Positions 5 through 46,477 of a stretch of DNA of 64,000 nt are shown in pieces. Within the stretch, counting starts at the first letter, position 1; each line of letters opens with the position of its first letter. Source of the stretch: Chloroflexota bacterium (GTDB taxonomy: Bacteria > Chloroflexota > Dehalococcoidia > JACPQD01); assembly GCA_016190665.1 (NCBI GenBank), contig JACPQD010000022.1:20296-84295 (forward strand), written 5' to 3'. A program made the translations under genes and the position numbers. The notes beneath the pieces are model-generated. The model was not told the origin of the DNA. It did no database searches and worked only from the letters and a program-made list of their open reading frames with translations.

Positions 5-1711
5 CTACTTCGCCAACCACGTATTCTCGTGCCTCAGGTTGGTGTACTGGCCGTTCCCTGGCTTGAAGTTCTTCACCTGGGGCCAGATGCCCGTGATGTT
101 CTTGGTCCAGAAGAGGACGACGTAAGGGCTGATCTCCAGGAACCTCCGCTGCACTTCCAGGACCAGCTTCCTCCGCTCGGCGAACTCGAGGATCGTGTCC
201 TGTTCTTGCCAGAGCCGGTCGATCTCCTCGTCGAAGAAGTTGAAGTCGTTGCCTTTGAGGAAGTACTTGTTGGCCCCGGCAGGATCGTTGTTGTCGATGG
301 CCGCGGTGGCCACCAGGGTGTCCCAATCGGGCTTGGCGCCGAACCGCCGTACGCGCTCGATGTTCTGCTCCACCGGATCAATCGCTGCATCTATCCCGAT
401 GCGCGAAAGCTGGTCCTTCATGAACTCGGCGATACGCACGTATTCCGACCAGTTGCGCACCAGAATGGAGGTCTTGAAGCCCTGAGGGAAACCGGCCTCG
501 GCGAGCAGCTTTTTTGCCTCCGCCCTGTCCGCATCCTTGGGCATGCGGTAGCCGGGCGTCTTGATTATCTCGTCCTCGGACAAGGACCACTCGCCGGGAG
601 TGACGGGCGTGCCGAAGGAGCCGATTCCCTCCCCGAGGGCATCGATCGCCGCTTGCCGGTCCGTGCCCAGGCTCACGGCTCTTCTCACCTTGCTATCGCC
701 CCAGGGTTTGCGGTCCGGGTTCATGAAAAAGGCATTGAAGACGCCGCGAGGGTGCTGGACGATTTGCACGCCTTTGATCTCCCGCTCGGCTATCTTCGCG
801 TGTGATGGCGCCAGGCCGATGTTGGGGGCGGTGAGCATTATCTGCCCAGTCCTGAAACCCGCGAGGCGCGTCGCGGGGTCGGCCACGATATAGTACCTGA
901 TGCCATCGAGATAGGGCCGCCCTTTGATGAAGTAGTCCGGGTTCTTCACTACCGAGTAGAAGGAGTTGTTGACGTACTCCTTGTACTTCATGGGGCCGGT
1001 GCCTACGATGGTCCAGTCGAGGGCCGCATCCGGCTTGGCCGCCTTCTGAGCGATGTGCTTGGGTCCGATGGCCGAATGTGGCAAGGCAAGCTGGACAAGC
1101 AGGGAAGCGCTGGGCGCCTTCAGCATCAGCTTGGCCGTGGTGGGGTCGACCACCTCCACCTTGTCGATGGCGATGAGGTTGAGCAGTTTCCGGTTCACCT
1201 TCGGATTCTTCGGGTCTGTCATGAACTCGAGGCTGAACTTCACGTCGTCGGCGGTGAAGGGCTGACCGTCGTGCCATTTGGCCCCCTTGCGCAGGAAAAG
1301 CGTGGCTACCTTGCCGTCGGCGCTGAACTCCCATTTCTCGGCCAGGTCGGCGATGACTTTGTCATTGTCGAAGGGGTCAAACTGGAACAGCTGGCTATAA
1401 ACAGGTCCGTTCAAGGAGAGCGTGCTGATGGAGGTGTTCTCCAGCGGGTCCAGGTCCACGGGGTTGGACATGTGAGCGATGGTGAGAATGCCGCCGGACC
1501 TGGGCTCCTCGCCCGATGGCTTGGGTGTGGGCGCCGGGGCGCCCGGCTTGGGCGTTGCCGGGCTCGAGGCGGTCGGCGCGGCGGCCGGCGCGGCGGCCGG
1601 CGCCTTGGCCGCATCTTTGGCGGGCGGGGCGCCAGGCGCTGATGGTGCGCAACCTGACAGCACGAGGCCCATGACCATCAACAAGCTGAGCAGATGCAAC
1701 AGGCTCTTCAC
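5..1711 (-). CDS. ABC-transporter substrate-binding lipoprotein, family 5 (peptide/nickel/opine type)
   Basis: 568-aa ORF, GTG start preceded by GAGGAGG. Signal peptide with lipobox (LVLSGC), Pro/Ala-rich linker, then SBP_bac_5-like body ending NTWLAK. Paralogous to six other ORFs in the window. Confidence 0.9.
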   Translation of the reverse strand: MKSLLHLLSLLMVMGLVLSGCAPSAPGAPPAKDAAKAPAAAPAAAPTASSPATPKPGAPAPTPKPSGEEPRSGGILTIAHMSNPVDLDPLENTSISTLSLNGPVYSQLFQFDPFDNDKVIADLAEKWEFSADGKVATLFLRKGAKWHDGQPFTADDVKFSLEFMTDPKNPKVNRKLLNLIAIDKVEVVDPTTAKLMLKAPSASLLVQLALPHSAIGPKHIAQKAAKPDAALDWTIVGTGPMKYKEYVNNSFYSVVKNPDYFIKGRPYLDGIRYYIVADPATRLAGFRTGQIMLTAPNIGLAPSHAKIAEREIKGVQIVQHPRGVFNAFFMNPDRKPWGDSKVRRAVSLGTDRQAAIDALGEGIGSFGTPVTPGEWSLSEDEIIKTPGYRMPKDADRAEAKKLLAEAGFPQGFKTSILVRNWSEYVRIAEFMKDQLSRIGIDAAIDPVEQNIERVRRFGAKPDWDTLVATAAIDNNDPAGANKYFLKGNDFNFFDEEIDRLWQEQDTILEFAERRKLVLEVQRRFLEISPYVVLFWTKNITGIWPQVKNFKPGNGQYTNLRHENTWLAK

Positions 1712-1949: not shown

Positions 1950-3713
1950 CTACACTTCAGGAATCGGCCCCAGGTCTTCTCTGGCCTGGGCGATGAGGTC
2001 GTCCCAATTCTTCGGCAGTTCCATGCCCGCGCTGGTAGGCTGGCGGCCGGCGACGCCGATCTGCATCCAGTAGTTGTGGCCGGACTGCTCACCGCCGGCG
2101 ATGGCGATCATGATGTTCTCCGGCTTGGCGGTGATAGGCATCGGGATCTGTGCCGCCTCTGCCGGTAGAGCCATTGACTTGGTGGCTGCCGAGAGAACGC
2201 CTCTCAAGTCAGCGGTATCGGGGACCTTTGAGTTCTCCCAGAGGAAGTTCTTCACTTTCTGCTTGGACCAGCCCATGGCCGCCAGGTCCTTGGCCACGCC
2301 GCGCGGGATGAGCAGGACTCCGGGCGAACCTCCGAAGTAGTTGGGGCCATGGAAGTAGTTGGCATTGAGGGTGCTCATGTTGTGGGCCGAGACGCGAAGG
2401 ATATTTATGAGCTGCCCTTCGGCGGTTTCCGCCATGGCCGACGCGTTCAGGACGTTGACCGTGCTGGCGACGGGTTGCGTGGTGACGGTGTTCGTTCCCC
2501 GGGGGAAGCCCCTTTCCTCGTTGAGCGGCTCCCAGCCTTTGGGAACGCCCGCCTCGTCTTCCGCGAAGACGATGTTGGTGTACCGGGCTGGGCCGCCGTA
2601 GATGGCCATGGTCCCGATGCCGGGGATGGCGCCGCCCACGTTCTGGAGCAGCAGCCGGATGGCGCGCCCGATGGACGCGCCGGCCGGGAACCTCGGGTCT
2701 GGCCCCAGGCACCCGTAGCTCCAGTTCAGACGAATCTGTTTGGTAATGGGGCCATTGACGATCACCACGGGGTAGCCGGAGTTGGTGGTGGGCTGGAAGT
2801 TCTGGTGCAGCGTCAGGGGATTGGTGATGGCCTCGATGGAGGCGATGAGCACCGGCAGGTACTCCGGACGCCCGCCCGCCATGGCGAGGGCGATGGCGAG
2901 GACCTCCACGGTGGATACGCCGCCTCTCGGCAGGATTTTGCCCTCTCCAATAATGGAGTTACGGGGGCGGTCCGTGCCGGTCAATATCCAGGCGACCCGC
3001 TCCTCCGTCGGCGGCAGGACCGGCAGGCCGTCGGCCCACATGTTCTTCAGGAAGAGGTGGTTCATCTTGTCCACCGCATCCTGGTAGTCCTTGCCTTCAA
3101 CCGTTATCCTCTTGGCGGCGAGGGACGCCTGGCGCTTCATCTTCGGCTGCCATTTCGTCAGCCCGTCGATAACGCTGTCGATATGCGCCTCGATGGGGGA
3201 GAGGTCGCTCTCCGTCAGGAACATCTCGGTAGGGAATTCATAGGTCACCGGACCTTCGGGAGAGAAGCCGAAGCCCGCGAAGGCATTGCCGACCACCTGG
3301 GTGAAGCCCTTGCGGGTGAAGGCCACAGTAGGCATGCCCAGTTTCTCGATCCTGGCAGCGGCGCGGCCGACGGCCGTCGAGCAGGAGCCTCAGCCCGCGT
3401 TGCCGACTATGGCGGCGTGACACCCCTTCGCCTTGACCAGCTCCCCAATGTTGTCGACATCGATGTAGCGGCTGCCCGAGGGAAACTCGGTGAGGGGGAT
3501 GACCTTCAGATCGGGGAAGCGCTTCTGGAGCAGTTCGCGGACTCTTCCGAAGGTGCGCTTGTCCTCCCACGATGCGTTCGAGATTTCGCAGACCGTCTTG
3601 CCGGCCAGGGTATCGAGCCGGGGCGCATGAGTCTGCGTGGTATCGAGGGCGCCGCAGGGATCGAATACCTCCAGGGCCGCCCGGCTTGACTCTCGAGCCA
3701 TGGTTCTTTCCAT
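1950..3713 (-). CDS. UGSC-type selenoprotein (N-terminal U-G-S-C domain) fused to a conserved C-terminal DGLPVLPPT domain; Sec codon TGA at 3390..3392
   Basis: ORF-track entries 3390..3713 and 1950..3335 are in the same frame and separated only by one TGA. Read-through context is IVGNAG-U-GSC-STAVGRAAAARIEKLGMPTV. Homologous TGA positions occur at 30635 and 36779. AGGTGG RBS lies before the ATG at 3713. Confidence 0.72.
3367..3380 (-). promoter_or_regulatory. Weak SECIS-like hairpin candidate downstream of the TGA at 3390..3392
   Basis: Minus strand UCGAC-GGCC-GUCGG (5 bp including one G-U) starts about 10 nt after UGA. It is much weaker than the hairpins at the other two loci. Confidence 0.2.
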
Positions 3714-5654: not shown

Positions 5655-5660
5655 GCAGGC

Positions 5661-8546: not shown

Positions 8547-8924
8547 CTAGCCGAGGTCCTTGTCGCCCAGGGCCTCCTGAAGAATACTATCCGCTGCAGC
8601 GCGCCCTTGCTCCCGGAGAGCGCACAGCGCCGCCTTGCAGATCGCCTCCGGCTCCGTGTAGGCCCCGTTCCCGAAATCCGCCCAGCAAATGGCGTCGTCG
8701 AAGCCCTTCTCAATCATCTTGTCGACGACCATCTCAGCCCAGTCCATATCCTCGGAATAGGGCAACGGGTCGCCCCAGATCGAGCTCCCATCTTCGGGAT
8801 GGATTGACTGTTCCATGTATCCGAAGAACTGGTCTTTCACGACCCTCTTTCCCATCACCTGCTCAGCCACCAGGGCGTTCAGTTCCGCGCCGGGTTTCAT
8901 CGCCAGGATTTCCTCTAGACTCAC
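8547..8924 (-). CDS. Small acidic hypothetical protein
   Basis: 125-aa ORF in operon spacing between the TPR and DUF4125-like genes. No motif I can name with confidence. Confidence 0.45.
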   Translation of the reverse strand: MSLEEILAMKPGAELNALVAEQVMGKRVVKDQFFGYMEQSIHPEDGSSIWGDPLPYSEDMDWAEMVVDKMIEKGFDDAICWADFGNGAYTEPEAICKAALCALREQGRAAADSILQEALGDKDLG

Positions 8925-11345: not shown

Positions 11346-11966
11346 CTATGCCATCAGCCCGCGGATTTCCCGTGTGAGGTCGTCTACAAACCTGCGGAAG
11401 GAGGCGTCGGCCTTCCCAGCTTGGTACAGATTGACTTGCTTGGCAACCTCCTCACCGTACTCTGCACCGCCTAGAACGGGCCGGATGCCGACCGCAAGCA
11501 ATGCGTCGCGGAGGATCATCTTGTAGTAACCACGGGGGTGGTGTCCGCGTGGAAGTCTAGACGTGACTGGGGCGCCCGTGGCCAACTGAAAGGCCTTTGT
11601 GTCTATGACGTACCATCTCTCGATGTAAGGGTTGGGGACCGCCAAAACCGCTGGACCTTGGTAGCCAGCAGATTTCAATATGACGGCGATGTCTTTGCTC
11701 ACGCGGGTGTATTGCGCTCCATTGCCGTCTTTGGCCACCAAGAGAATCTGGTTAGAGCAGGAGCCTGCAGCTCCGACGTCAGCCAAAAACCTCCTCAGCT
11801 CTCTGAGAGTTCTGCTTCCTCCGGCCGCGTTTCGGACATCCTCTATGAGGCTATCCTCACTCAGGCCCAATTGCGTAGCAATGCGGGCCACGAGGCCTCG
11901 GATGAACTTCTCGTGAGCGATGTCTTCAAGGAAGTAAATGATGTGAACCTTACCCGCCAAAGTCAC
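11346..11966 (-). CDS. Toprim-like (DUF4276-like) small protein, partner of the upstream ATPase
   Basis: 206 aa. Overlaps the ATPase gene by 17 nt. Acidic pattern IIYFLED ... LLVAKDGNG ... NPYIERW resembles the E / DxD / E Toprim layout. Family assignment is from memory only. Confidence 0.45.
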   Translation of the reverse strand: MTLAGKVHIIYFLEDIAHEKFIRGLVARIATQLGLSEDSLIEDVRNAAGGSRTLRELRRFLADVGAAGSCSNQILLVAKDGNGAQYTRVSKDIAVILKSAGYQGPAVLAVPNPYIERWYVIDTKAFQLATGAPVTSRLPRGHHPRGYYKMILRDALLAVGIRPVLGGAEYGEEVAKQVNLYQAGKADASFRRFVDDLTREIRGLMA

Positions 11967-13257
11967 CCCTCAAGATCCGATCCGCTAGGGTGGAAGGCTC
12001 CGGTTCCCGATCAAGGGCATCCTCAACATCCCGCTTTCTGAATAAGGGTCCGAAGGTATCTAGCCGCTGGAAGCGGGTGGCGTGATTTCCCTTCGTGCAG
12101 ACCAGTACATACGCGTCCTCAAAGAAGTACTCAGGAAGAATCGGAGAATGAGTATTGACGATTATCTGGGTCTCACCTCGAGAGGCGGCATCTTTCAGAA
12201 GCTCAGCTATGAGTCTCATGCGTCGAGGATGTACCCCGTTTTCCGGTTCCTCGCACCCAATGACGGAAGCAGGGGAAAGCGAATTCGTGATCGCGACCAA
12301 TGCTAGAACCCTCAAAGTGCCTTCGGAAATCACGCGGGAGGAAAAGGGAACGCCATGCTCCCAAACCTGCAATTGCAGAAACCCTTCCTTCGTTCGCTCG
12401 ACATCGACTTTATCGATCGCCGGGATGAGTTGTCTGATTGCGAGGTTTAGTGCGTCAAATTGCCGTTCGTTCTTTGCTTTGAGTGAGTTATAGAACCCCG
12501 CAAGATCGGAGCCGAAGGGACTTATGTTTTCCACTTCCTTCAGAGGCGTCTCACGGCGCATTTCGTTAGGCTCCAAGTAGTAGAACCGCCATCGCGACAG
12601 TTCCTCTTTGAGAGCAGTGATGTGTGGATAATGAGGTGCATACAGGGGCGTCGAAAGCAGCGTGTGATCCAGCCCCAGTTGATGATAAGAGGGATGTGCC
12701 TGGCCCTCCATCCTAAGGTGAAGACGCCCATCTTCTCCTTTCTCAATGAAAGGCCTGCGCCGCGTTGGCTTCCTGCCGCCACCTGTAAGCGCTTCCAGTT
12801 TCTCATCAGCGACCCTAAGATGCCCCGTCGAAGTGGTCATTTCCACAGCAAGGGAATAGCAGAGCCGATTTGCCAAGACTCTGCGCCGGGCAACCCTAGC
12901 GCCTTGGTCTTCAGGTGGGAGACCTGCTCGCATCTCCTTGATGGTCTGCTCCGTATATTCGCGCACCTCCCGGCTAATCTCAACCTCTACTTCGATGCTG
13001 AAGCCCGCAGTGGCCTCCCCCAATAATCCTTCCCTGCCCTTTTCGCCATAGTAGAAAGCTTCGAGCGGCGCTCCTCTATGCTCCTGAAAAGCTTCCTTCA
13101 AGGTCTTCCGCGTGGCCATCCGGCTCACAAGAGCCAAAGCATCAAGCAGGTTGCTTTTCCCAGCAGCATTTGGGCCAAGAATGACTGTCAAGGGTCTCAG
13201 CTCAATGTCGACGTCTTTGAGCGACTTATAGCCCTGCACCTTAATTCTGCGAATCAT
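11950..13257 (-). CDS. ABC/SMC-fold AAA ATPase (AAA_15/AAA_21-like, OLD/AriA-like)
   Basis: Start moved to MIRRIKVQGYKSL (GGAGG RBS). Walker A GPNAAGKS, signature-like SEGTLRVLAL, Walker B IGCEEPENGVHP, H-loop NTHSP. Visibly lower GC than neighbouring genes. Confidence 0.8.
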   Translation of the reverse strand: MIRRIKVQGYKSLKDVDIELRPLTVILGPNAAGKSNLLDALALVSRMATRKTLKEAFQEHRGAPLEAFYYGEKGREGLLGEATAGFSIEVEVEISREVREYTEQTIKEMRAGLPPEDQGARVARRRVLANRLCYSLAVEMTTSTGHLRVADEKLEALTGGGRKPTRRRPFIEKGEDGRLHLRMEGQAHPSYHQLGLDHTLLSTPLYAPHYPHITALKEELSRWRFYYLEPNEMRRETPLKEVENISPFGSDLAGFYNSLKAKNERQFDALNLAIRQLIPAIDKVDVERTKEGFLQLQVWEHGVPFSSRVISEGTLRVLALVAITNSLSPASVIGCEEPENGVHPRRMRLIAELLKDAASRGETQIIVNTHSPILPEYFFEDAYVLVCTKGNHATRFQRLDTFGPLFRKRDVEDALDREPEPSTLADRILRGDFGG

Positions 13258-13397
13258 GGTATAGCCTCCGAGATTGGCCCCGCCCCGTCTGAACTGCGTT
13301 CGCTGCAGCGTCGAATCGAATCCAACATCGCGGCCCAATATTATCATGATTCATTGCAGAAAGTCCATCCGCGCGAAACGAGATCTGCTGGTTCTCC

Positions 13398-14125: not shown

Positions 14126-15250
14126 TCACCTTTTCAGGATCGTTATAGCGCAGTTGGGCCCAGCTCCCAGCGTATGGGCGAGACCGACCCTGGCCCCGGC
14201 AATCTGTCGCGCGCTCGCCTCCCCTCGGAGCTGCAAAACGATCTCGGTAATCTGCGCTAACCCTGTTGCGCCCAGCGCGTGACCCCGGGCCAGCAAGCCG
14301 CCGCTGGGGTTGACCGGGATCCTACCGCCAATCTCCAACGCGCCCTCATCCACCAGTCTGCCCCCTTCGCCCGGGGCGCAGAGCCCCAGATGTTCGCAGT
14401 TCGTGACCTCCGCAATGGCCATGGCATCATGAGTCTCGATCAAATCCAGGTCCTCGGGGCCAATGGCGGCTTCATCATACGCCTCGCGTGCGGCAGCCGC
14501 CGTTAGCCTCCCGTTGTCGCCGTGCAAGGGCTCCGGACCGAGATAAATGGCCGATTTCAGAACAGACGCGGCGATGCGGACCGGCCGGGCGCCTTCCGGC
14601 ATCTTGTCGCGGCAACAAAGGACCGCCGCGGCCGCGCCTTCGCTAGTGGGGCAACACATGAAAAGGGTCAACGGGTCAGCTATCATGCGGGAGGCCAGCA
14701 CTTCCTCTACCGTGCATTCCTGTTGATAATGGGCATAGGGGTTCTTACAGCCGTTTCGATGGTTCTTGACCGAGACCTTGGCGAGCTGTATGGCGGTCGT
14801 CCCGTGGAGGTCCATGTGGCGCCGGGCGACCATGGCGTAATCGGCGGGGCGAACCGACATGCCCATGATCCTTTGCCATTCGGGGTCGGCGGTGCTCGCT
14901 ATCATCCCCTTGGGGATCTTCTCGAGGCCGTAGGCGATAGCGATATCGTACATGCCGCCAGCGATAGATTGACATGCCAATCGAAAAGCGGACCCGCCGC
15001 TGGAACAGGCATTCTCCACATTAACGATGGGTATGCCTGTCAGCGCGATTTCCCTGGCTATCCTGTGCCCCGCGCCCACATCTCCGTAAGCCGTGCCGCA
15101 AAAGGCCGCCTCCGCTTGCCTCCAGGAGAGCCCCGCGTCCTTCAGCGCGTTGAGCACCGCCACGCGGCCCAGGTCCGTGAAATCCAGGTCCGGGAAGCGG
15201 CCAAACTGGTGCATCCCAACGCCAACCACGTAAACTTCTCTGCCCCTCAT
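14126..15250 (-). CDS. Thiolase-fold protein (SCP-x / Ltp-type)
   Basis: 374 aa. VENACSSGGSAF active-site Cys context. Directly downstream of a DUF35 OB-fold gene, the usual partner. Confidence 0.85.
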   Translation of the reverse strand: MRGREVYVVGVGMHQFGRFPDLDFTDLGRVAVLNALKDAGLSWRQAEAAFCGTAYGDVGAGHRIAREIALTGIPIVNVENACSSGGSAFRLACQSIAGGMYDIAIAYGLEKIPKGMIASTADPEWQRIMGMSVRPADYAMVARRHMDLHGTTAIQLAKVSVKNHRNGCKNPYAHYQQECTVEEVLASRMIADPLTLFMCCPTSEGAAAAVLCCRDKMPEGARPVRIAASVLKSAIYLGPEPLHGDNGRLTAAAAREAYDEAAIGPEDLDLIETHDAMAIAEVTNCEHLGLCAPGEGGRLVDEGALEIGGRIPVNPSGGLLARGHALGATGLAQITEIVLQLRGEASARQIAGARVGLAHTLGAGPNCAITILKR

Positions 15251-15327
15251 TTGTCCCCCCAGAAGAAGCTGTCAGCTTTCAGCAACAACCAATGACCAAT
15301 CACTAATCAGCAATCGGCAATCAAAAA

Positions 15328-15738
15328 TCAAAAATCAACGACCGGCCTGAACTTGAAGGCCACGACCTCATTGCCTTCTTCGTCATCGAACAGCTTCTCC
15401 ATGACCAGTTCCATCTGCATCCCAATCTTCAGGCTCTCGAACTCTGTCACTTGAAGCGGAGACAGGACCAGCGGGCCTTCCGGAAGCTCCACATAGCCAA
15501 GAGCATAGGGCACAGGTCCCCGGTATTGCGGTGGTTTCTGACGCACGACGGTGAAGCTGTACAGCGCGCCCCCGGGAGACAACGCAGCCTCTTCAATCTT
15601 CTCGCCTCCGCATTTCAGGCAGATAAGGCGCCGGGGGAAGAAGACCTCGCCGCATGAGGAGCACTTGCTCCCAATCAGATGCGGCTTCTCCACATCCATC
15701 GAAAACAACCCTTCGGCAACCGGAATCGAACTGGTCAT
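15328..15738 (-). CDS. Zn-ribbon / OB-fold DUF35 protein
   Basis: 136 aa. CSSCGEVFFPRRLICLKCGG rubredoxin-like ribbon followed by an OB fold. Confidence 0.85.
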   Translation of the reverse strand: MTSSIPVAEGLFSMDVEKPHLIGSKCSSCGEVFFPRRLICLKCGGEKIEEAALSPGGALYSFTVVRQKPPQYRGPVPYALGYVELPEGPLVLSPLQVTEFESLKIGMQMELVMEKLFDDEEGNEVVAFKFRPVVDF

Positions 15739-15757
15739 CTCCCATTCCTTGCTGGTG

Positions 15758-17002
15758 CTATCCGAGGACGCCGTCTTGCTTGAGCCGCGCCATCTCCTCC
15801 TGGCTATATGCTAGAAGGTCGATGAGCACTTGCTGAGTGTGCTGGCCAAGCAAGGGTGGGGCTGCCCCCACCGCGTAGGCGTCCGGGTCCACGCCCCGGA
15901 ATCTGACCGGCGTGTTCACGAGGTTGAACTTCCCTAAGCGTGGGTGGTCGACTTCCATGAGCATGCGCCTGCCCTTGACGTGCTCGGACTCGTAGACCTG
16001 CTTTATGTTGCTGACGGCACCGCAGGGATAACCCTGTTCCAGGAAGGTATTGACCGTTTCCTCGCTGGTCCGCTGGCTCAGCCACTCGTTGAACCCGGGC
16101 TCCCACACGTCGCTGTTCACGTAGCGCAGGGTGGCAGTGGCCAAACGCGGATCAGCGATCCACTCCTGCTTTCCAATAATGCCGCAGACCCGGTGCCACG
16201 CCTCGTTGGTTGAGCACAACAAGCCGATGTAGCCATCCTTCGTCCTAAACACCCCCCAGGGAACGTTCGAGTCTTCCTGGCCTCGGGTCATAACACGGCC
16301 CGTCAAGGAGTAGGTGGTCAAGGCCCGCTCCACCACCGACACAATACAGTCGAACATACTCATGTCAATAAGATCGCCCTCACCGGTCCGGTCCCGCACC
16401 CGAAGACCCATCGTCACGGCGAAGGCCCCCCAGATCCCCGGCAGCAAATCGGCGAAAGGAACAGTGGAGAAGAGAGGTGGTCCCCCCTTCTCGCCGGTGA
16501 GGTCCAGTAGACCTGCCATAGCTTGTATGACGATGTCCAGGGCCGGCCTGCCCGCCCAGGGCGTGGGATAATCCGGCAAACGACCGAAGCCGCTGCAGGC
16601 CAGGTAGACCATCGACGGATTGATGGCTTTGACGAGGTCATATCCCAGACCCAGGAGATCGTCGACCGCGCCGGGCCTGAAATTCTCAATCATTACGTCC
16701 GAAGTCTTGATCAGGTCCACAAAGGTCTCTTTGCCGCGCTGCTGCTGAAGGTCCAGGACGACACTCTTCTTGTTCCGGTTAAAGCGGATGAACATCTCGT
16801 GGTCGATGCCCTCGCCGAGAAATCGCCCCGCGCGCCGTGTGTGGTCGCCCGTGCCCGGTCTCTCAATCTTGATGACTTCGGCCCCGTTGTCAGCAAGGAT
16901 CATCCCGCAGTAGGGCCCCGTGATGCCCACGGTCAATTCCAGGACTCGAATGCCGTCCAGGGGCTTCTTGTGCTGTTGTCCGCCCAGCGCCATCTTCTTC
17001 AC
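15758..17002 (-). CDS. Family III CoA-transferase (CaiB/BaiF)
   Basis: 414 aa. GIRVLELTVGITGPYCGMILADNGAEVIKIE N-terminal signature. Confidence 0.9.
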   Translation of the reverse strand: MKKMALGGQQHKKPLDGIRVLELTVGITGPYCGMILADNGAEVIKIERPGTGDHTRRAGRFLGEGIDHEMFIRFNRNKKSVVLDLQQQRGKETFVDLIKTSDVMIENFRPGAVDDLLGLGYDLVKAINPSMVYLACSGFGRLPDYPTPWAGRPALDIVIQAMAGLLDLTGEKGGPPLFSTVPFADLLPGIWGAFAVTMGLRVRDRTGEGDLIDMSMFDCIVSVVERALTTYSLTGRVMTRGQEDSNVPWGVFRTKDGYIGLLCSTNEAWHRVCGIIGKQEWIADPRLATATLRYVNSDVWEPGFNEWLSQRTSEETVNTFLEQGYPCGAVSNIKQVYESEHVKGRRMLMEVDHPRLGKFNLVNTPVRFRGVDPDAYAVGAAPPLLGQHTQQVLIDLLAYSQEEMARLKQDGVLG

Positions 17003-17021
17003 TCCTCCCGGGGTATGAACG

Positions 17022-17420
17022 CTAAGAGCTTGCCTCGCATAGCCGCTCGGCGCACTTCACGATTTCGTCCAGCGAAGCGCCGGGCGTGAAAATCTCCGCC
17101 ACTCCAGCCAGTTTGAGCTTCGCAACGTCTTCGTCAGGCACGATGCCACCTCCAAATATCTTGATGTTCGAGGCGCCCTGGGCCTTGAGAAGATCGAGTA
17201 TCCTTGGGAAAACGGTCATATGAGCGCCGGACAGGATGCTGACACCGATCAAGTCCACATCTTCCTGGATCGCGGAGGCTACAATCTGCTCCGGCGTCTG
17301 ACGGAGGCCTGTATAGATCACCTCCATGCCGGCGTCTCGAAGGGATCGAGCGACAACGAGCGCACCCATCTCGTGGCCGTCAAGGCCCGGCTTGGCGATG
17401 AGGACTCTTATCTGACCCAT
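17022..17420 (-). CDS. Cobalamin-binding small subunit of an acyl-CoA mutase
   Basis: Start moved to [19 protein letters not shown] (DxHxxG B12 motif), GAGGGAG RBS, 27 nt after the large-subunit stop. Confidence 0.9.
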
Positions 17421-17446
17421 TTCTGCTCCCTCTGTTGTCGCCCGGC

Positions 17447-19126
17447 CTAGGACGAAACCGTCCCCGGCGAATACACTCCGAAAATATCGCGGAGCACATC
17501 GCATATTTCCTGGACCGTCGCGTAGGTCGAAACTGCGCGGATCGTCGCCGGGACCGAGTTGGCTCCGGCCTTCGCCGCGTCGGCAAGCTCACGCAGGGCG
17601 AGGCGGACCTCCCTGCTGCTCCTCTTGCTCTTCAACTGGCGCAGTCTTTCCACTTGCATCTCTTCACTGGATGGGTGGGCATGGAAGACCGGCACATTGG
17701 GACCTTCGTCAACCTTAAATCGGTTAACCCCGACCATCACCTTGTCGCCGCTCTCAATGGCCCTGATCCTCTTATAAGCCGCGTCGGCGAGCTCCCTTTT
17801 CATGTATCCGATGGCGGCCAGCGCGCCGCCCATGGCCTCGATCTTTGACAGATACTCCACCACTCTCGCCTCGAACTCGTTGGTGAGGCTCTCCACGAAG
17901 TACGAGCCGCCCAGGGGATCGACGGTATTGGTGACACCGCTCTCATAGGCCACGATTTGCTGACTGGCCAACGCGACACGGGCCGCCTGCTCCGTGGGCA
18001 GCCCCAGCGCTTCGTCGTACGAGGGCACGTGGATGGTCTGAGCGCCGCCAAGCACCGCGGCCAGCAGGCTGATGGTGGTTCGGGCCACGTTGTTCAGCGG
18101 CTGTGCGGCGGTCAGAAATCGACCGGTGGGGAAAGTCAGCATCCTGGCGGTGCAGGCGGCCGGGTTCTTCGCACCGAACCTGTCCCGCATCATCTTCGCC
18201 CACATCCTTCGCAGAGCCCGCAAGTTGGCTACGCCCTCGAAGAGGTCGCCTTCGACGTCGATCAAGAGCCACATGCGGGAGCCGAACACGTCAATGTCCA
18301 TCCCCCGCCGCAGGCATTCCTGGATATAAGCCATGGCATCGGCCAGAGCGAAGGCTGTTTGCTGCACGGCCGTGCCGCCGGCCCCGAGGAAGTGCGAACC
18401 GCAGACGCAGATGGGCACCCAATCGGGGAGGACCTTGCACGCGTACTCGATGACATCCACCGCGAGCCTGACGCTGGGCTCCGGCGGGAATATGTAGGCG
18501 CCGCGGACCGTGTACTCCTTAAGGATGTCATTCTGCAAGACCACGCTGAAGCTCGCGGGGTCGACTCCCTGTTTTTCGGCGGTAATCTTGAACATAGCCA
18601 GTGCTATGCCACTTATGGCATTGGCCGTCGTTCGCAACTGTCCCATCTGCGCCAGGGGCAGGCCCTCCAGAACGGTCTCCATGTCCTCAAGGGAACAGAA
18701 AGGCGTCCCGCACTTGCCGACCTCGCCTTTGGCGAGCGGATGGTCGGAGTCAAAGCCGAGCTGAGTGGGGAGGTCCATGGCCAGGGAAAAGCCCGTCTGG
18801 CCCTGGTCTATCAGTTGCCTGACTCTTCGGTTGGTATCCTTGGCCGATGACAACCCGGTATACATCCCCATGGTCCACAACCGCGAGCGGTACATGAGCG
18901 GGTCGGTGCCTCGCGCGAAGGGGAATTCTCCCGGGAAGCCTACTTCTTGCAGGTAATCAATGTCCTTGACGTCTAGCGGCGTATAGAGAGGCTTGACTGG
19001 AATGTTCGAGAGCGTCCTGAAATCGCTTCTCCCCTGTCTGGACTCAGAGATGCCGGTTACTCCTTGATGCCAGCGTTCTGCTGCCGCACTCAATTCCTTG
19101 TGGTCTATTCCCTCAGCCAAGTCCAT
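17447..19126 (-). CDS. Methylmalonyl-CoA-mutase-family large (catalytic) subunit
   Basis: 559 aa. TIM-barrel mutase signatures ([19 protein letters not shown]). Confidence 0.9.
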
Positions 19127-19200
19127 ACCTCCCAGTTAACCCCAGTCAAGCACACCCATTCCGGAATCCACGGATTCAAGAATCTGGCTTCCGGTCCGAT

Positions 19201-20718
19201 TCACTGCCTGACGCGAGTCCTCTCCTTCATTACGCTGTCGCCCGCGATGCGGCCCGAAGCGAAGCACTGCGCCAGGTTTCCGCCCGGACCAGGGCAAAGC
19301 ATGCCGTAGATGCTGCCCAGCTCGCCGCAACCGTAAAGTCCCGGTATAGGGTGGCCGCTGGCGCTGACGATCTGCCCCTTGCTGTTGCGGCGCGGGCCGC
19401 CCACGGTGGCGGGAGTCCCCGGCCAGAGCGCCACGGCGCAGTAGGGGCGGCTGTCCAGCGGTATCAGTTCCGCTGGTTTCCTGCCGAACTCAGGGTCGTT
19501 GCCTTGCAGGCAGTACCGATTGAAGTTCCTGACGGTCCTTTCCAAATTGGCAGGGGGAACGCCTATTCCCCTGGCCAGGTCTCGAACCGAGTTGGCGGTC
19601 TTTATCCAGCCCTTCTCCAACTCAACGCTGTTGTCAGCGCTCCATTCGTAGAGCCGCACGGGCCCGGTGGGCCCAGCGGTGACGGAGGCCAGCGGCCCGT
19701 TTTCCAGCCGTCTCCGGTCGAAGATCATATAGCTGGGTACCCGAGGGTAGATCAGGCGATGGGTATCAAAACAGGGCAGCTCATAATAAGCGGCGCGGCC
19801 GTTCAGGTTCTCGCTGGTGAACCTCTTGCCATCCCGGTCCACTATGATGTGCCCGGATACAGTTGGGATAGCCTCCTCGCCCCTGGCGTAACGCTTCTGG
19901 GACCGGCCCGGGTAATCGGTGGAGAAGGCCATCGGGAAGTCGGGGAACTTGAACATCATACAAGCGGAAAGGCAGTTCATGTGCCAAAGTTGGGCTCCTA
20001 CCTCTATCGCCATTCTGAGGCCATCGCCCGTATTGGCCTCGGTCCCTGTAGAGTAGGCGGGGTAGACTCTTAAGTATTGGAGCTTTGTCTGCTCGTCGTA
20101 TTCGAAACCTCCCGAGGCCAGCACTACACCACGGGAGGCGCCGATCCTGAGCCGTTGCTCCTGCCCATCCTGGCGGACCCGCGCTTCGATGCCGATGACT
20201 CTTCCCCTGACGTTGGCAATGAGATGGGTGGCCCTGGCTTCGTAGAGAACGGGGATCCCTTTAGCCCTTACCTGGTCGTCAAGAAAACGGGCAAGCCCTA
20301 CGCCCAATCCCTTGAAGCAATGTCGGGGGATGGTCGCCGCCCCGGGCAGATGGAGATAGTCGACGGGGCCGGGGCTGAGGAAGACGCTGCCTCCCCTGGC
20401 CTCGATCCAGTCCTTGCCGGTGGCGGCATACTCGGCGAAGCTCCGCAGCACCGCATCATCGGTCCAGGAGATATCTTCGGCGCCGATCCGATAGAGAGCC
20501 TTGGCATATTCCAGCGCACTCTTCGCGTCCAGAGGGGTGATGAAACTGCCCCCAGCCATGCTCGTATTCGTGTGGTGGGTCTCCTTCGGCTGTTTCTCCA
20601 GAACGAGGACCTCGGCGCCGTGCTCGGCGGCGGTGACAGCGGCCACCGGGCCCGCGCCGCCGTAGCCGATGACGACCACGTCAGCGGTCAGGTCCCAGGA
20701 AACATGGCGCACGAGCAT
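19201..20718 (-). CDS. FAD-dependent oxidoreductase (FAD_binding_2, fumarate-reductase/KstD-like)
   Basis: 505 aa. VVVIGYGGAGPVAAVTAAEHGAEVLVLEK dinucleotide-binding motif. C-terminal GLYGCGE motif. Confidence 0.8.
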   Translation of the reverse strand: MLVRHVSWDLTADVVVIGYGGAGPVAAVTAAEHGAEVLVLEKQPKETHHTNTSMAGGSFITPLDAKSALEYAKALYRIGAEDISWTDDAVLRSFAEYAATGKDWIEARGGSVFLSPGPVDYLHLPGAATIPRHCFKGLGVGLARFLDDQVRAKGIPVLYEARATHLIANVRGRVIGIEARVRQDGQEQRLRIGASRGVVLASGGFEYDEQTKLQYLRVYPAYSTGTEANTGDGLRMAIEVGAQLWHMNCLSACMMFKFPDFPMAFSTDYPGRSQKRYARGEEAIPTVSGHIIVDRDGKRFTSENLNGRAAYYELPCFDTHRLIYPRVPSYMIFDRRRLENGPLASVTAGPTGPVRLYEWSADNSVELEKGWIKTANSVRDLARGIGVPPANLERTVRNFNRYCLQGNDPEFGRKPAELIPLDSRPYCAVALWPGTPATVGGPRRNSKGQIVSASGHPIPGLYGCGELGSIYGMLCPGPGGNLAQCFASGRIAGDSVMKERTRVRQ

Positions 20719-20768
20719 TAAACGACCTCCAGCCGGATCTCCTTCTCAGGGCGCCACTCGGTCTGCCC

Positions 20769-22127
20769 CTAAGCGCAGGTCAGGATCTCCATCAACTCTG
20801 ACACGTCCTTCAGATTCTCCAGGTCCAATATCAGTTCGATAGCCCGGTTGACCTGCTCGCCAGCTAGAATCCCCTCAGCGCACCCCTCGAATCTAGCAAT
20901 CAACTCCTCAGTGGTGAAGGGCACGCCCGGATCCCCCTTTGGCTTTTCCACCGTCGTGCTGAATTCTCGTCCGTCCTTGAGCTTGATAGTCACGATGTTA
21001 ACGCCCGTGAAGACGCCGCGCTCCCACTCGGGATGAACCACCAGCTTGAGCTTGCGGCCAGCTTCTCTAAACACCGGATCGAGGGCTTTCTCGTCGGTAA
21101 AGGTACTCGCCCCGATTCTGCGTTCCAGCAGAGCCGCTGCAACGCCATGATATATGCTGAACCTGGCCTCCTCGCCACCTGCCGGGTCGGGCCGATCAAC
21201 AAACTGAGGCGTAGAGGGGCTCACTTCGGCTTCAACTCTCTCCACCTCGTCACAGGAGATGTTATGCTCGTTGATCAGTTGTAACGTACCATCCAATATG
21301 CGGTGCTGAAAATTGCAGCACGGGTGCCCCTTCATCGCGATAGCCTCGATTCGAAACGGATTGCCCAGGTCCTTGAGCACTTTCTCTGTGTCGTATCTCC
21401 CCTCTCCGGCGATGTGAGTGCCGAAGCCAGGATAGTCTGCATCCTCCAGGATGTCTTTATCCGCTGTGAAACCCTCCTTGGCCAGCATGGCCGCCATCAG
21501 GCCCTCGCTGCAAGAAAGCCCAGTCTCAAGGTAGTGGGTCATCGTCGAGGCCTGGCGCGAGTAGCCCCCTGTATGACTGGCGGCAATGCCCAAAGCCATC
21601 CTCGAACGCTCAACATCGAGCCCGAGCAATTTGGCCGCCGCGGCCGCCGCTCCCAGCGAGCCAAAAAGACTGAGATTGAGATACCCCCTTTCGCGGGAAA
21701 AAGGGGCGCATGCCAGGCCAATCCTGCTTTGGACCTCATGGCCAACGATAGTCCCCTGCAAGACGTCTCTTCCCGAAAGCCTTAACTTCTCTCCAAGAGC
21801 GAAGACAACGGGAAATAGCGCCATTGCGCTTCCACCATCTGGAAAGCTGCTGCTCTCCCATTCGGCGGCATGGCCAATGGTGCCATTGGCAAGGGCCGCG
21901 TTTACTGCCGACGTCTTGAAGCCAGCGCCCACCACTCCGGCCTCCGGTGTGCCCCCCATTTCCCTGACGAGTTTGCTCACTATCTTGCTTGCCGGCCATG
22001 CGGAAGCCCATAGCGTCGTTCCTAGACTGCTCAACGCCAGTCTCTTCGCATAGCTGAGCGTCTTCTCAGGAAAATCACCGTAGCTCGTGTCCACCATGAA
22101 CTGAGCCAGTTTCTCAGTTACTCCCAT
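20769..22127 (-). CDS. MmgE/PrpD-family dehydratase/isomerase
   Basis: Start moved to MGVTEKLAQF (GGGAGGG RBS). PrpD-like N-terminal helical domain. Confidence 0.85.
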   Translation of the reverse strand: MGVTEKLAQFMVDTSYGDFPEKTLSYAKRLALSSLGTTLWASAWPASKIVSKLVREMGGTPEAGVVGAGFKTSAVNAALANGTIGHAAEWESSSFPDGGSAMALFPVVFALGEKLRLSGRDVLQGTIVGHEVQSRIGLACAPFSRERGYLNLSLFGSLGAAAAAAKLLGLDVERSRMALGIAASHTGGYSRQASTMTHYLETGLSCSEGLMAAMLAKEGFTADKDILEDADYPGFGTHIAGEGRYDTEKVLKDLGNPFRIEAIAMKGHPCCNFQHRILDGTLQLINEHNISCDEVERVEAEVSPSTPQFVDRPDPAGGEEARFSIYHGVAAALLERRIGASTFTDEKALDPVFREAGRKLKLVVHPEWERGVFTGVNIVTIKLKDGREFSTTVEKPKGDPGVPFTTEELIARFEGCAEGILAGEQVNRAIELILDLENLKDVSELMEILTCA

Positions 22128-22266
22128 CTTGCCCTCCCAGAAAGAATTCCGCAGCGAATCACGGCCAGGCACCTCACACTAGCACCTCGTGCCTCTCCAG
22201 CCTCCTCCGCATACAAAGTTATTGCCACTTACTGGCGAAGATATTCATCGGAAGTAGCCAGGTTCG

Positions 22267-23940
22267 TCAGCGCGCCAACCATACGTCCCTAAAACTGTAG
22301 CCTGAATAGTACGATCGCTGAGGCGCACCCCAACCCTTCACGTACTCGCGCCAGGCGAAAAGCTTCATCCATGTGCCCACCGTTATCACCGGAACATCCT
22401 CGGCAAGGATGGTTTGGATGACATCCTGGAGAGCTTTCTTGCGCTGCAAAGGGTCGAGGATACGACTCTGCTTGTCGATCAACTGCCCCGCCCGTGGGTT
22501 ATCGTACATGGCCCAGTTCTGTCCCCCACCCTTAACATAACCACTGTAAAGGACGGAATCAGGGTCATCGACTATGTAGGCGAGAGTGCCGAAGGCAAGC
22601 GCCCAGTCGCCTCCAACCCTGACGTTATGAAAGGCCGCAGCCTCCAAACGTTTGATTTCTACATCTATGCCAACTTCTTTCAACTGCGCCTTCAATACCA
22701 CGGACGCGTCCGCATGCGCCTGGATGGTTTGAGTCATGAGTGTCGTCTGGAATCCGTCTTTGAACCCCGCCTCGGCCAGCAATCTTCGGGCCTCGCGACG
22801 GTCCTCCTCCTTATCACGTCTAACATAGTAGCCTGGCAGTTGTTTGAGGTCCTCCTCCGACGGCAGCCACTTAGAACCATCGGGGAACAGTGCAGCCTGC
22901 GGCGCGAACCACTCCCCCAGCAACAGCTTCGAAAGGTTTTCCCGGTCTACGGCGAGCGCTACAGCCTTTCGTACCCTCACATCCTTGAAAGGCGTGCCTG
23001 CCAGATGTGGCCAATTGAAACTAATCGAACCCACGGAAGGACCTCCCACAACGGTCCCTATTCCGGGACGCTGCTGCTTCAGCGAAGGAAGCGCCTGCCG
23101 CGGGACTCCTGGAGTAAGGGGCAAAATGTCCACCTGTCCCACCGCGAAGGCGGCTCTCATTGTCCCCGCGTCCGGGATAGCATAAACACTGATGCCATCC
23201 AGATACGGCAGATCCTTGATGAAATAATCTGGATTGCGCACCAGATCCAACGACACACCGCTCTTCACTAGCTTATATTTGAACGGCCCAGTGCCCACGG
23301 GTTGTCCGCCAAGGCCATCGGGACGTTCGTAAGCAGCCTTGGAGATGACCGCCGCCTGCCCTCCAGCCAGAGAGGGAAGGAAGGAAGGTCTGGGATAATC
23401 GAAGAACACCTTGACCGTGTATTCATCGGGAGCTTCGGTCCGCCTCAATTGGGGCGATAGTAGGCCATATGCATACGCTGGAGCCCCTTTTTCAGGCAGC
23501 TTCGTGCTCACATCCAGAAAGAACTTCACGTATTGAGCGGTCATGAGAGCGCCATCGTGGAACTTCACGCCTTTCCTGACGCGCAGAGTCAGGAGTCTGC
23601 CATCGTCGCTTATCTGCCAGCCCTCCAACAGATGCGGCGCCAACTTCGCCGGGTCGCTCCGGTCCTCTTCAACCAGTTGGTCATACATGGGCAACATGGG
23701 GATACGCCCAGTTGCTGTCGCGTCAGTGAGAATGTCAAATCTTGCCGGCAGACGAGATGCGCCCCACTTGAGTATGCCGCCAAACTTCGGCTTCTCCGGG
23801 ACAGGCGTTGGGGTGATGCCTGCCGGGGCTGCGGTGGCCGCAGGCACGGAAGTAACCTTCCGCTCCGCGGGGGCACAGCCGACCAGTAGACCGATCACAG
23901 CAACCAGCCCAGTCAGGGCTCGCAGATTCCGCGTCTCCAT
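22267..23940 (-). CDS. Family-5 ABC substrate-binding lipoprotein embedded in the catabolic operon
   Basis: 557 aa. Lipobox LLVGCAP. SBP_bac_5 body ending DVWLAR. Confidence 0.9.
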   Translation of the reverse strand: METRNLRALTGLVAVIGLLVGCAPAERKVTSVPAATAAPAGITPTPVPEKPKFGGILKWGASRLPARFDILTDATATGRIPMLPMYDQLVEEDRSDPAKLAPHLLEGWQISDDGRLLTLRVRKGVKFHDGALMTAQYVKFFLDVSTKLPEKGAPAYAYGLLSPQLRRTEAPDEYTVKVFFDYPRPSFLPSLAGGQAAVISKAAYERPDGLGGQPVGTGPFKYKLVKSGVSLDLVRNPDYFIKDLPYLDGISVYAIPDAGTMRAAFAVGQVDILPLTPGVPRQALPSLKQQRPGIGTVVGGPSVGSISFNWPHLAGTPFKDVRVRKAVALAVDRENLSKLLLGEWFAPQAALFPDGSKWLPSEEDLKQLPGYYVRRDKEEDRREARRLLAEAGFKDGFQTTLMTQTIQAHADASVVLKAQLKEVGIDVEIKRLEAAAFHNVRVGGDWALAFGTLAYIVDDPDSVLYSGYVKGGGQNWAMYDNPRAGQLIDKQSRILDPLQRKKALQDVIQTILAEDVPVITVGTWMKLFAWREYVKGWGAPQRSYYSGYSFRDVWLAR

Positions 23941-26243: not shown

Positions 26244-26467
26244 GATGCCCGATGCCAGCAAGCTGGTTCACCATTACGAGACACTTTAGAAAGTGAAACC
26301 TATTCTACGGTTCCCTCTCATCAGTGAGGGTGGAAACCACAGATACATATCAAGAGTATCGTAAGATTATTCTAGAGGGGAAGGGAAAGGGACATGGAAG
26401 CCGGCCACCTGTCCAAGATCCGGCGGGGCGGCTGGTGCTCGTCATAGGAGGTAGGAGGAGGTTCGGA

Positions 26468-28365: not shown

Positions 28366-28612
28366 TCTGCCAGACATCCGCGACCCTTGCTTTCTGCTTC
28401 GATACGTTTTGAGAAGCTGGAATGCTTTCGGATTCGCGCGTGATGAATTAGCTTAGAAACCACAGATTCACGTAAGGAGCATCGTCAAATGGGGTAGCCT
28501 AGACAGAAACGGCGTTGTAGACGCGGAGGTGCCGGCGACATGGAAGGCGACCAGAAGTCCAGGATTCAGCGGGTCGGCTCGTTCTCTTCAGAGCAGTAAG
28601 AGGAGGTTCGGT

Positions 28613-30328: not shown

Positions 30329-30910
30329 ATGAAGAAGGACATGGCAAAGCTCATTTCCCCTCGGGCGGAGGAGTATCGGGAGCGTCCGAGAGCTGCAAGG
30401 GGACGGGTGCTCACCGATCTCCACGGAAAGCTCATCGCCTTTGTGGACAATGGTCGACCCAATGCCGACATAGCTCTGGCCGGCGTTAGAGAGGAGATGG
30501 AAAGGGCCTTCCACATCCGGCCGGTCTCTGTTGAGTACAAGGCCTACGGGTTGTCGGCCGGCGGCCTTTTCCCTAAGGAAGTCTTCGACCGGCTGGTCAA
30601 CGAGGCGGACGCCGTGGTCTGGGGGATAGGTTCTTGAGGGGCATGCACGGGGCGGAGTGTCCGCAACGTCGCCGAGTTCGTTGGTCATGAAGTACCAGCC
30701 GTGGCGCTCGTGGCGCCGGCCTGGGAAGCTCCGGCCAGGGCCATTGCGCGGGCGGCTAAGTTGCCCGAGTCGCAAATCATTACTCTCCCGCTAGGCGAGC
30801 TATTCGCCGACAGCACTGACGCCGCCCAGCGGATGCGGGAGACGGCCGGTGATCTGGTGCCCTTGATCGAAAAAGCGCTGAAGGCAAGCTCTCCCGTTCC
30901 AGCGCGGTAG
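30329..30910 (+). CDS. Stand-alone UGSC-type selenoprotein domain (motif U-G-A-C); Sec codon TGA at 30635..30637
   Basis: ORF-track entries 30329..30637 and 30701..30910 share a frame and are separated only by one TGA. Context is VVWGIGS-U-GAC-TGRSVRNVAEF. AAGGAGG RBS. Homologous to residues 1-190 of the fused genes. Confidence 0.7.
30647..30669 (+). promoter_or_regulatory. SECIS-like hairpin candidate
   Basis: ACG-GG-GCGGA-GUG-UCCGC-AA-CGU begins 10 nt after UGA. G-containing apical loop. Confidence 0.4.
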
Positions 30911-32010: not shown

Positions 32011-32291
32011 CTCCGTAGCGGCGAGAGCCATTCGCGGATTCGGCAATGTACTCGAAGTGGCAGTGTTCGGGGCCATAGGACGGCCTGGCCACACTATATG
32101 TTCTTAGTGCAGAATGAGGTTAGTCAGGGCCTGGAACGATCAGATTCACACAAGCAGGGGACGGCTTTTCAATCAGATGTTTGTCGCCGGGGTCTCATCA
32201 TAAGGCAACGATGAACGGCGGGTCCCTGCGATTGGGCCGGGCGGCCCATGCCTTGAAGGCAAGAACGAGACATGAGCGTAAGGAGGCTGCA

Positions 32292-33959: not shown

Positions 33960-34024
33960 TTGCTGATTTTTGATTTTTGATTGCGGATTGCCGGGAACGC
34001 CCGACTTGCGCTGGAGGTTATGAG

Positions 34025-46162: not shown

Positions 46163-46444
46163 GTTTTGCCTCCTTAGCAGCTCCACGGCTGTCAGTCGAA
46201 TAGACGGAAGGTAGTATAACCGCCCCAAGACCCTATTGTCCAGTAAGGAGCGATTCCGACCGGCTCACGAGCCAGGTGGCCGCCAGGCCCTGGTTCACCT
46301 TGATGGGTTTCAATTGGGGATGGGGAAAAGCGAGGTCCCTGAAGAATTTTGGGCAGTGGTTGTGGAGGTGGCGCCCCGACGTGTCAGGTCGAGATTCGGG
46401 GCTCGCTTTTGCCTTGAGGAGCGGGATATCTGGCAGGAAGTGCA

Positions 46445-46477
46445 AGAGAGACGCGGTTTCAGAAACCGCGTCTCTCT
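46445..46477. terminator. Perfect 15-bp-stem / 3-nt-loop hairpin downstream of the DUF5667 gene pair
   Basis: AGAGAGACGCGGTTT-cag-AAACCGCGTCTCTCT. Followed by a second 10-bp hairpin CAGGGGGCGT...ACGCCCCCTG. No U-tract. Confidence 0.45.

Follow-up and report, generated by a model that had tools for sequence, protein, structure and literature searches.

In the selenoproteins PrdB and GrdB a U-x-x-C motif (U being selenocysteine, Sec) acts through attack by the selenolate, followed by resolution by the Cys to a selenenylsulfide. The UGSC family, first mentioned in 2007 (PMC1976440), is described in a 2008 paper as a UGSC-containing selenoprotein family from Global Ocean Sampling (GOS) data, with 255 Sec and 21 Cys forms; the same paper proposes a thioredoxin (Trx)-like fold and a generic redox role for UGSC, and reports a fusion of UGSC with a domain termed Unknown_1 from GOS reads (PMC2398784). 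The function of the family is still listed as unknown in a 2026 review (PMC13188914). The window analyzed here, a stretch of 64,000 nucleotides from a metagenome-derived Chloroflexota assembly (GCA_016190665.1, contig JACPQD010000022.1, positions 20,296 to 84,295), contains a gene (copy 1) for a 587-residue UGSC-family protein in which an in-frame TGA at 3390-3392 almost certainly encodes Sec, and two paralogous loci (copies 2 and 3). The elements of copy 1 are the following.

1950..3713, minus strand: complete selenoprotein gene, copy 1, of 587 codons, with UGSC domain and C-terminal domain, the predicted Sec being residue 108
3390..3392, minus strand: UGA almost certainly read as Sec, motif U-G-S-C; 74 loci have TGA at this column and 5 have TGC, and homologues have CGSC, CGAC or CGGC
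3210..3671, minus strand: UGSC domain, residues 15-168 (Pfam PF24696, E 6.6e-18, 65.9 bits vs a cut-off of 25)
1953..3101, minus strand: C-terminal domain (C-domain) of ~385 residues (AlphaFold pLDDT 91.4; 6256 representative clusters)

The frame that runs on the minus strand from ATG 3713 to TAG 1950 comprises 588 codons counting its stop, hence 587 residues, and its translation shows TGA 3390-3392 to be the sole internal stop; the open reading frames (ORFs) 3390..3713 (107 aa) and 1950..3335 (461 aa) each correspond to one half of this frame, just as the sequence-only reading that preceded this work had claimed. The residues flanking the TGA are ...KGCHAAIVGNAG-(TGA)-GSCSTAVGRAAARIEKLG-MPTVAF..., the 18 codons from the TGA to the downstream ATG being those translated as GSCSTAVGRAAARIEKLG; that earlier reading had counted these sensible codons correctly, but quoted their peptide with one A too many. 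Copy 1 aligns end to end, at 45-51% identity, with uninterrupted Cys homologues of ~575 residues, and an identical gene is present in two independent assemblies.

A protein search in which U was replaced by C returned 1855 relatives, mostly from metagenome-assembled genomes of Chloroflexota. Among the best 120 of these 1855 homologues, 92 are proteins of ~455 residues that start just past the TGA column, and the other 28 are uninterrupted, have ~575 residues and carry the Pfam UGSC domain. Cys occupies the Sec column in 26 of the 28 (CGSC in 15, CGAC in 9 and CGGC in 2), the motif being lost in the remaining two; alignment with Cys homologues, which the sequence-only reading had proposed, has thus yielded CGSC, CGAC and CGGC counterparts in uninterrupted proteins. 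One genome per species was then scanned for related DNA, giving at least 589 related stretches, of which the best 80 were fetched and their Sec regions aligned in frame. The codon at the Sec column of these loci is as follows.

TGA: 72 of the best 80 loci
TGC: 5 of the best 80 loci (L019, L039, L052, L058, L076)
GGG: 1 of the best 80 loci (L046)
Column cut off by the end of the contig: 2 of the best 80 loci

Two further loci obtained from an exact protein look-up (L001 and L002) likewise have TGA at this column. The loci come from Chloroflexota, Burkholderiales and other Betaproteobacteria, Alphaproteobacteria, Rokubacteriota, Acidobacteriota, Dormibacterota, Thermodesulfobacteriota and others, and both flanks of the column are conserved, as in GNAA(TGA)GSCATACGRAA and G(M/I)G(A/C)(TGA)GSCTPAVLRAS. 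A reassigned genetic code in this DNA is unlikely, because 19 other ORFs of the window, several of which Pfam families cover over their full length, end in TGA as an ordinary stop.

A TGA at the homologous column of two other loci of the window (30635 and 36779), also claimed from the sequence beforehand, was confirmed, and the complete frames at these loci could be delimited.

30329..30910, plus strand: copy 2, stand-alone UGSC protein (predicted selenoprotein) of 193 residues, UGA 30635-30637, motif U-G-A-C (PF24696, E 2.6e-21)
30952..32010, plus strand: partner of copy 2, stand-alone C-domain gene of 352 residues, in another frame, 41 nt past the UGSC gene
36470..38185, plus strand: copy 3, UGSC plus C-domain protein (predicted selenoprotein) of 571 codons, single TGA 36779-36781, motif U-G-A-C (PF24696, E 1.8e-29)

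Copy 3, with the context ALGA(TGA)GACTPAVV, has the two-domain layout of copy 1. The copy 2 locus is a two-gene version and not a fusion: the UGSC gene (context GIGS(TGA)GACTGRSV) has an ATG preceded by the Shine-Dalgarno sequence AAGGAGG, and its neighbour has a Shine-Dalgarno of its own, GGGAGG, 7 nt ahead of the ATG. The product of 30952..32010 is 30-33% identical to the C-domains and retains the motifs DGLPVIPPT, CRPEH, NGP and IGRA. When the window was scanned for other TGA junctions in one frame with at least 60 codons on each side, no convincing coding case was found, and the junctions were judged to be shadow ORFs. One such pair is formed by ORFs 46276..47703 and 47722..48645 (plus strand), which share a frame split by a TGA in the context ...NIFT(TGA)GCRL...; neither has a Pfam match, the second overlaps a DUF5667/FIMAH gene on the opposite strand, and the pair 46276..48645 is probably a shadow ORF.

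The bacterial Sec insertion sequence (SECIS), as modelled in the bSECISearch of Zhang & Gladyshev, is reportedly a stem-loop directly 3' of the UGA, with a G-containing apical loop 16-37 nt downstream. Each of the three TGAs of the window is followed by a hairpin (RNAfold) whose G-containing apical loop lies 22-28 nt past the UGA.

3345..3381, minus strand: SECIS-like hairpin of copy 1, starting 11 nt past the UGA, apical loop ~27 nt downstream (RNAfold)
30639..30679, plus strand: SECIS-like hairpin of copy 2, inner stem GCGGA/UCCGC, loop GUG (RNAfold)
36787..36818, plus strand: SECIS-like hairpin of copy 3, 12 pairs with a 2-nt bulge, loop GGUUGU (RNAfold)

Three sequence subgroups can be distinguished, with differing peptides and differing hairpins at about one place. 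Group A, which includes copy 1, has a stem GCGGC/GCCGC and a loop CGUGCN, retained in 88-94% of 49 distinct relatives; group B, to which copy 3 belongs, has 12 pairs with a 2-nt bulge and the loop CGUGUU; group C and copy 2 have the loop GUG, a type found in the (TGA)GSCTSW subgroup. In alignments kept in register, 73% of the cells are paired in group A and 86% in group B (19 relatives), compared with 24-61% when the partners are slid; for the hairpin of the copy 3 type (19 relatives) the slid controls give 24-56%. No Rfam model matches the hairpins. Synonymous sites were examined in 50 group A genes by comparison with codon usage in the remainder of the same genes, with the following result.

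Arg of the loop encoded by CGT: 37 of 48 (background 11.4%)
Gly of the stem encoded by GGY: 48 of 49 (background 73%)
Ala of the stem encoded by GCY: 44 of 47 (background 44%)
Codon after the UGA being GGG: 34 of 50 (background 17%)

The group A sequences are related to each other, which inflates nominal p-values, but the effect sizes are large. The bias is not a mere lack of divergence, because the neighbouring Thr and Ala codons of group A use all four synonyms. The codon usage thus indicates selection at the RNA level just 3' of the UGA, as expected of a SECIS. The TGA column shared across many phyla, the homologues with CGSC, CGAC or CGGC, and a hairpin with synonymous-site constraint together support Sec recoding, which the sequence-only reading had put forward as the parsimonious explanation.

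That reading had also named an NCBI family, UGSC (seleno)protein, and such a family exists (NF041046, "UGSC family (seleno)protein"), as does the Pfam family PF24696, "UGSC". Copies 1, 3 and 2 pass the PF24696 gathering score of 25 with 65.9, 103.5 and 77.0 bits, respectively, and reach 36.8, 58.9 and 51.8 bits against NF041046, below its equivalog cut-off of 125 bits. With scores of 37-59 bits against a cut-off of 125, the UGSC domains of the window are related to the NF041046 equivalog but form a distinct subfamily. NF041046 models a stand-alone protein of ~147 residues, whereas two of the three window copies are fused to a domain of ~400 residues. Shared with the published family are the motif U-G-(S/A)-C, the alignment of Sec with Cys in a minority of homologues, and a large excess of Sec over Cys forms. 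The UGSC/Unknown_1 fusion is, judging from its description in PMC2398784, probably the architecture seen here: Unknown_1 is described there as a conserved unknown domain that also occurs alone, and so fits the C-domain, of which GOS reads could show only the start. Copy 1 thus joins a known selenoprotein family, and its fusion, probably noted already in 2008, will be unsurprising to specialists.

The fold of the UGSC domain was addressed with an AlphaFold model of a Cys homologue (P0009, 47% identical to the window protein; pLDDT 92.7, pTM 0.93). In this model Cys111, the equivalent of the Sec, lies between a strand (103-109) and a helix (112-127). Foldseek matches of the model are weak (best E 8e-4) and, for the N domain, are all three-layer alpha/beta folds, namely the DHQS N-domain, B12-binding domains, flavodoxin, lumazine synthase and CheY-like proteins; a flavodoxin-like or Rossmann-like alpha/beta fold is accordingly what the model predicts for UGSC. 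The thioredoxin-like fold proposed in 2008 was considered and set aside, there being no thioredoxin among the Foldseek matches of the predicted structure.

The C-domain carries the conserved motifs W-x-DGLP-x-x-P-(P/A)-T, GGRPEY-x-P-V-L, NGP, SIGRA and AEDE, its conserved positions including D228-G229-L-P, R282-P-E-Y, N320-G, I348-G-R-A, E385-D-E387 and W394. It has no Pfam or NCBIfam match even at E<=10, and a profile search of the PDB yielded noise and no sequence relative. In a HMMER scan of 1.84 billion representatives the domain was found in 6256 clusters (at 50% identity) at E<=1e-3 and in 1740 at E<=1e-30. The pLDDT of 91.4 is that of the AlphaFold model computed for the 461-residue piece of the window itself; class I fumarase and the Toblerone fold, its best Foldseek matches, were rejected as relatives, as their probabilities (<=0.2) are not significant. 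Four relatives of 710-740 residues (P0152, P0185, P0190, P0224) have the C-domain twice in tandem, with neither UGSC nor any Pfam match. Many Cys-type fusions (P0014, P0041, P0042, P0061 and others) end in a conserved ...LGC-x4-C-x-(I/L/M) tail, absent from the Sec-type copies of the window, and this tail is possibly a mobile dithiol at the C-terminus.

Copies 1 and 3, like most relatives, have UGSC fused to the C-domain; copy 2 has the two as neighbouring genes. When stand-alone C-domain genes were picked at random, a UGSC selenoprotein gene, likewise stand-alone, was found beside them, in either order: the C-domain gene comes first in L085 (6001-7704), followed by UGSC with D(TGA)GSCTTC, and second in L087 (4372-7032), where UGSC has D(TGA)GACTTW and a gene for a Pyr_redox_2 flavoprotein of the size of thioredoxin reductase lies directly upstream of it. 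A third arrangement is seen in L088 (GCA_041642995.1), where a frame with one TGA (5452-7485) encodes 677 residues comprising UGSC(Sec), the C-domain and FeThRed_B (PF02943), a domain of the ferredoxin:thioredoxin-reductase catalytic type with CxC...CPC...CHC; gene callers report only the last 494 of these residues. A second protein, 37% identical, has a C-terminal ferredoxin:thioredoxin-reductase-like domain of the same type. A domain resembling the catalytic subunit of ferredoxin:thioredoxin reductase (FTR) is thus borne by the C-domain of L088 and P0271; it is absent from the three window copies and rare, occurring in 2 of the 120 best matches. These arrangements show that the C-domain family is wired to disulfide-reducing modules in some lineages. 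UGSC and the C-domain are paired in all the arrangements that were examined; this obligate pairing speaks for a dedicated partnership, and the pTM of 0.93 implies, for the predicted structure of P0009, a fixed interface between them.

The sequence-only reading had further pointed to a likeness to the Sec region of selenoprotein B of the GrdB/PrdB type, and this likeness held when profiles were compared (hhalign probability 82%, above all shuffles). GrdB belongs to glycine/sarcosine/betaine reductase and PrdB to D-proline reductase. The comparison set consisted of GOS fragments labelled GrdB or proline reductase, three of which match Pfam GRDB. These fragments read ...VDVVLLVPN-U-PVC-HQTVSLVARHLEANKIPTVI..., and the counterpart in the window reads ...CHAAIVGNAG-U-GSC-STAVGRAAARIEKLGMPTVA...; in both a hydrophobic strand is followed by U-x-x-C at the start of a helix and then by a G-I-P-T-V strand. 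Alignment of the UGSC-fusion profile with the fragments places Sec on Sec over 45-53 columns with a probability of 81.9 and an E-value of 1.1e-5, and the score of 48.5 lies 17 standard deviations (sd) above the mean of 100 column shuffles (mean 12.5, sd 2.1, maximum 20.3). Homology of the two Sec segments is plausible, on the strength of a short match. The GRDB profile itself (PF07355) has no match among the window proteins even at E<=10, and covers only the part before the Sec; hmmscan shows no GRDB link because the profile ends there. It ends on the very residue that precedes the Sec (profile positions 345-347), presumably because the GRDB seed was built from UGA-truncated proteins, so that the Sec-bearing C-terminal segment is not modelled. 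Both systems are Sec-dependent and tied to amino-acid or organic-acid catabolism. They differ in that the Sec lies in the N-terminal module of the UGSC fusions but near the C-terminal end of GrdB, and in that UGSC organisms, unlike those of the GrdB/PrdB setting, include aerobes such as Burkholderiales. No GrdE/PrdA pyruvoyl subunit, GrdA, GrdC or PrdC was found among the window ORFs or the recurrent neighbour clusters.

The genes that surround UGSC fusions point to catabolism of an imported small organic compound, since the neighbours that recur across the 80 loci are solute-binding and catabolic: TctC/Bug solute-binding proteins (64 genes in 32 loci), MmgE/PrpD, family III CoA-transferases, acyl-CoA dehydrogenases, GFO/IDH/MocA oxidoreductases and amidohydrolases. 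In the window every UGSC copy adjoins at least one SBP_bac_5 gene.

5..1711, 22267..23940, 26324..28162, 28529..30289, 32181..33959, 38291..39535 and 41184..42845: the seven SBP_bac_5 genes in 64 kb

Despite these seven, no ABC permease or ATPase gene was found among the window ORFs scanned. On the minus strand, 14126..22172 is a gene run typical of organic-acid or CoA-ester catabolism, with a pair formed by a thiolase-like protein and a DUF35/ChsH2 OB-fold protein, a family III CoA-transferase, an FAD flavoprotein, MmgE/PrpD, and large and small subunits of the B12-dependent methylmalonyl-CoA-mutase type; genes for MmgE/PrpD and CoA-transferase are also found repeatedly near the UGSC fusions of other genomes. 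A gene for a glycyl-radical enzyme (PFL-like plus Gly_radical; 33977..36451, plus strand) ends 19 nt before copy 3, which lies on the same strand; the window showed no radical-SAM activase, and the pairing of a glycyl-radical enzyme with UGSC is not repeated in the 80 related loci.

Taken as a whole, these results are best explained, and we hold this with high confidence, by a single Sec gene expressed via a SECIS, whose UGSC redox module serves a reductase C-domain. The ribosome would read UGA 3390-3392 as Sec under direction of the SECIS hairpin ~11 nt downstream, and Sec108 and Cys111 (U-G-S-C) at the start of the helix would constitute a redox module cycling between selenol/thiol and selenenylsulfide, with the fused domain of ~400 residues as the substrate-binding or catalytic part of a reductase for a small imported organic compound. 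In the redox-relay role that we infer, the selenolate of Sec108 would attack either a substrate or an oxidised group that the C-domain holds; the adduct would be resolved by Cys111 to a selenenylsulfide; and a thioredoxin-type system, or in some lineages the fused FTR-like domain, would re-reduce this, so that electrons would pass from a reductase module through U-x-x-C to the site in the C-domain. This relay is suggested by the UGSC/C-domain pairing, the flavoprotein of L087, the FeThRed_B domain of L088 and the G-C-x4-C tails taken together, and we give the sequence of attack, resolution and re-reduction, which is analogous to what U-x-x-C does in PrdB and GrdB, about an even chance. A bolder formulation, regarded as tentative, is that UGSC and the C-domain make up an unrecognised and very widespread two-module, selenoprotein-B-like reductase with a catalytic fold lacking a solved relative, which would be reduced via thioredoxin-reductase-like or ferredoxin:thioredoxin-reductase-like modules and would let Chloroflexota, Burkholderiales, Rokubacteriota and others cleave or reduce an organic acid or amino-acid derivative that they import.

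Several observations weigh against parts of this explanation. In the hairpins of groups A and B base-pair covariation is not above that of shuffled controls, since their stems hardly vary and coincide with conserved codons; the fold z-scores of single sequences do not reach significance in this DNA of 60% G+C; and the loop of copy 1 has CGC instead of CGU, and so is without the usual GU, CGU being present in the loop of L001, its orthologue at 76% identity. Genes for the Sec machinery were not found within the 64-kb window, the part of the genome searched: Pfam scans of its 54 large ORFs gave no selA, selB, selD or other selenium gene, and a Rfam gathering scan and ARAGORN gave no tRNA-Sec and no other RNA family. 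No reductase partner recurs across the 80 loci, whose repeated neighbours are genes for solute-binding proteins or for catabolism. About 50 columns underlie the link to GrdB/PrdB, and convergence on a strand-UxxC-helix geometry could account for it. A catalytic role of the C-domain is conjecture, because neither an invariant Cys or His nor a recognisable cofactor motif is present in the domain, and because a Foldseek search of the PDB with its model gave no match at E<=0.001, hence no structural relative.

If the existing annotation were correct, the TGA would end a 107-residue protein and a separate 461-residue protein would start at ATG 3335. Nearly all relatives are indeed split in this way by gene callers, and an ATG is available 18 codons past the TGA. 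Yet the 18 codons between TGA and ATG are conserved as protein, being identical in L001; the position of the downstream start varies among relatives, several of which have no start codon after the TGA although the frame is still open; the Pfam UGSC domain runs across the TGA; and the Cys homologues are uninterrupted. We consider this arrangement very improbable. Still less credible, to the point of being negligible, is the notion that the three genes are pseudogenes made by nonsense mutation, or that the TGAs are sequencing errors: nothing specific speaks for it beyond the metagenomic origin of the assembly, and it is at odds with the occurrence of the same codon at the same column in three paralogues and more than 70 species, with the lack of further stops or frameshifts in 587 or 571 codons, and with the identity of the gene in two independent assemblies. 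A Cys-for-Sec relationship accounts for the aligned pattern, which neither separate nonsense mutations nor sequencing errors, nor a genuine stop with separate initiation downstream, can explain; Sec recoding is far better supported than a stop or a nonsense mutation because the TGA column is conserved and has Cys counterparts.

Given Sec recoding, UGSC might instead be a general thioredoxin-like module for antioxidant defence or disulfide exchange, its fusion being incidental or serving to regulate or protect a non-redox enzyme. The Trx-like fold and generic redox role proposed in the 2008 paper (PMC2398784) would favour such a module, as does the lack of any identified site for a substrate or cofactor in the C-domain. 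The fold predicted here is flavodoxin-like or Rossmann-like, however, with Foldseek matches that include no thioredoxin, and the pairing of the domains, whether fused, split in either order or extended by FeThRed_B, speaks for a dedicated partnership; a general module is therefore judged unlikely, and a redox module dedicated to a reductase C-domain is preferred.

Elsewhere in the window, three consecutive FIMAH-domain paralogues lie on the minus strand (48082..49584, 50192..51694 and 52951..54171), the first two also having DUF5667. A small ORF with a phage ABA-sandwich domain and an ORF for an AAA_21/AbiEii-type ATPase (8547..8924 and 11950..13347, minus strand) could be left over from a defence system or a mobile element.

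Since gene callers end a protein at the Sec codon, the three genes of the window, like thousands in public databases, are wrongly annotated as pairs of "hypothetical proteins". UGSC has counted among the most abundant environmental selenoprotein families since 2008. Three points are new here: its partner domain is recognised as a large family that has neither a name nor a Pfam model nor a PDB relative; UGSC is consistently coupled to this C-domain, fused or neighbouring; and the similarity to the Sec site of selenoprotein B is quantified, which offers a testable link to glycine and proline reductase chemistry. UGSC and the C-domain thus present a concrete two-component target for biochemistry, for which no Sec expression system is needed, since Cys-type versions occur in cultured Variovorax (Variovorax sp. 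Sphag1AA, L039) and Novosphingobium (Novosphingobium flavum, L058).

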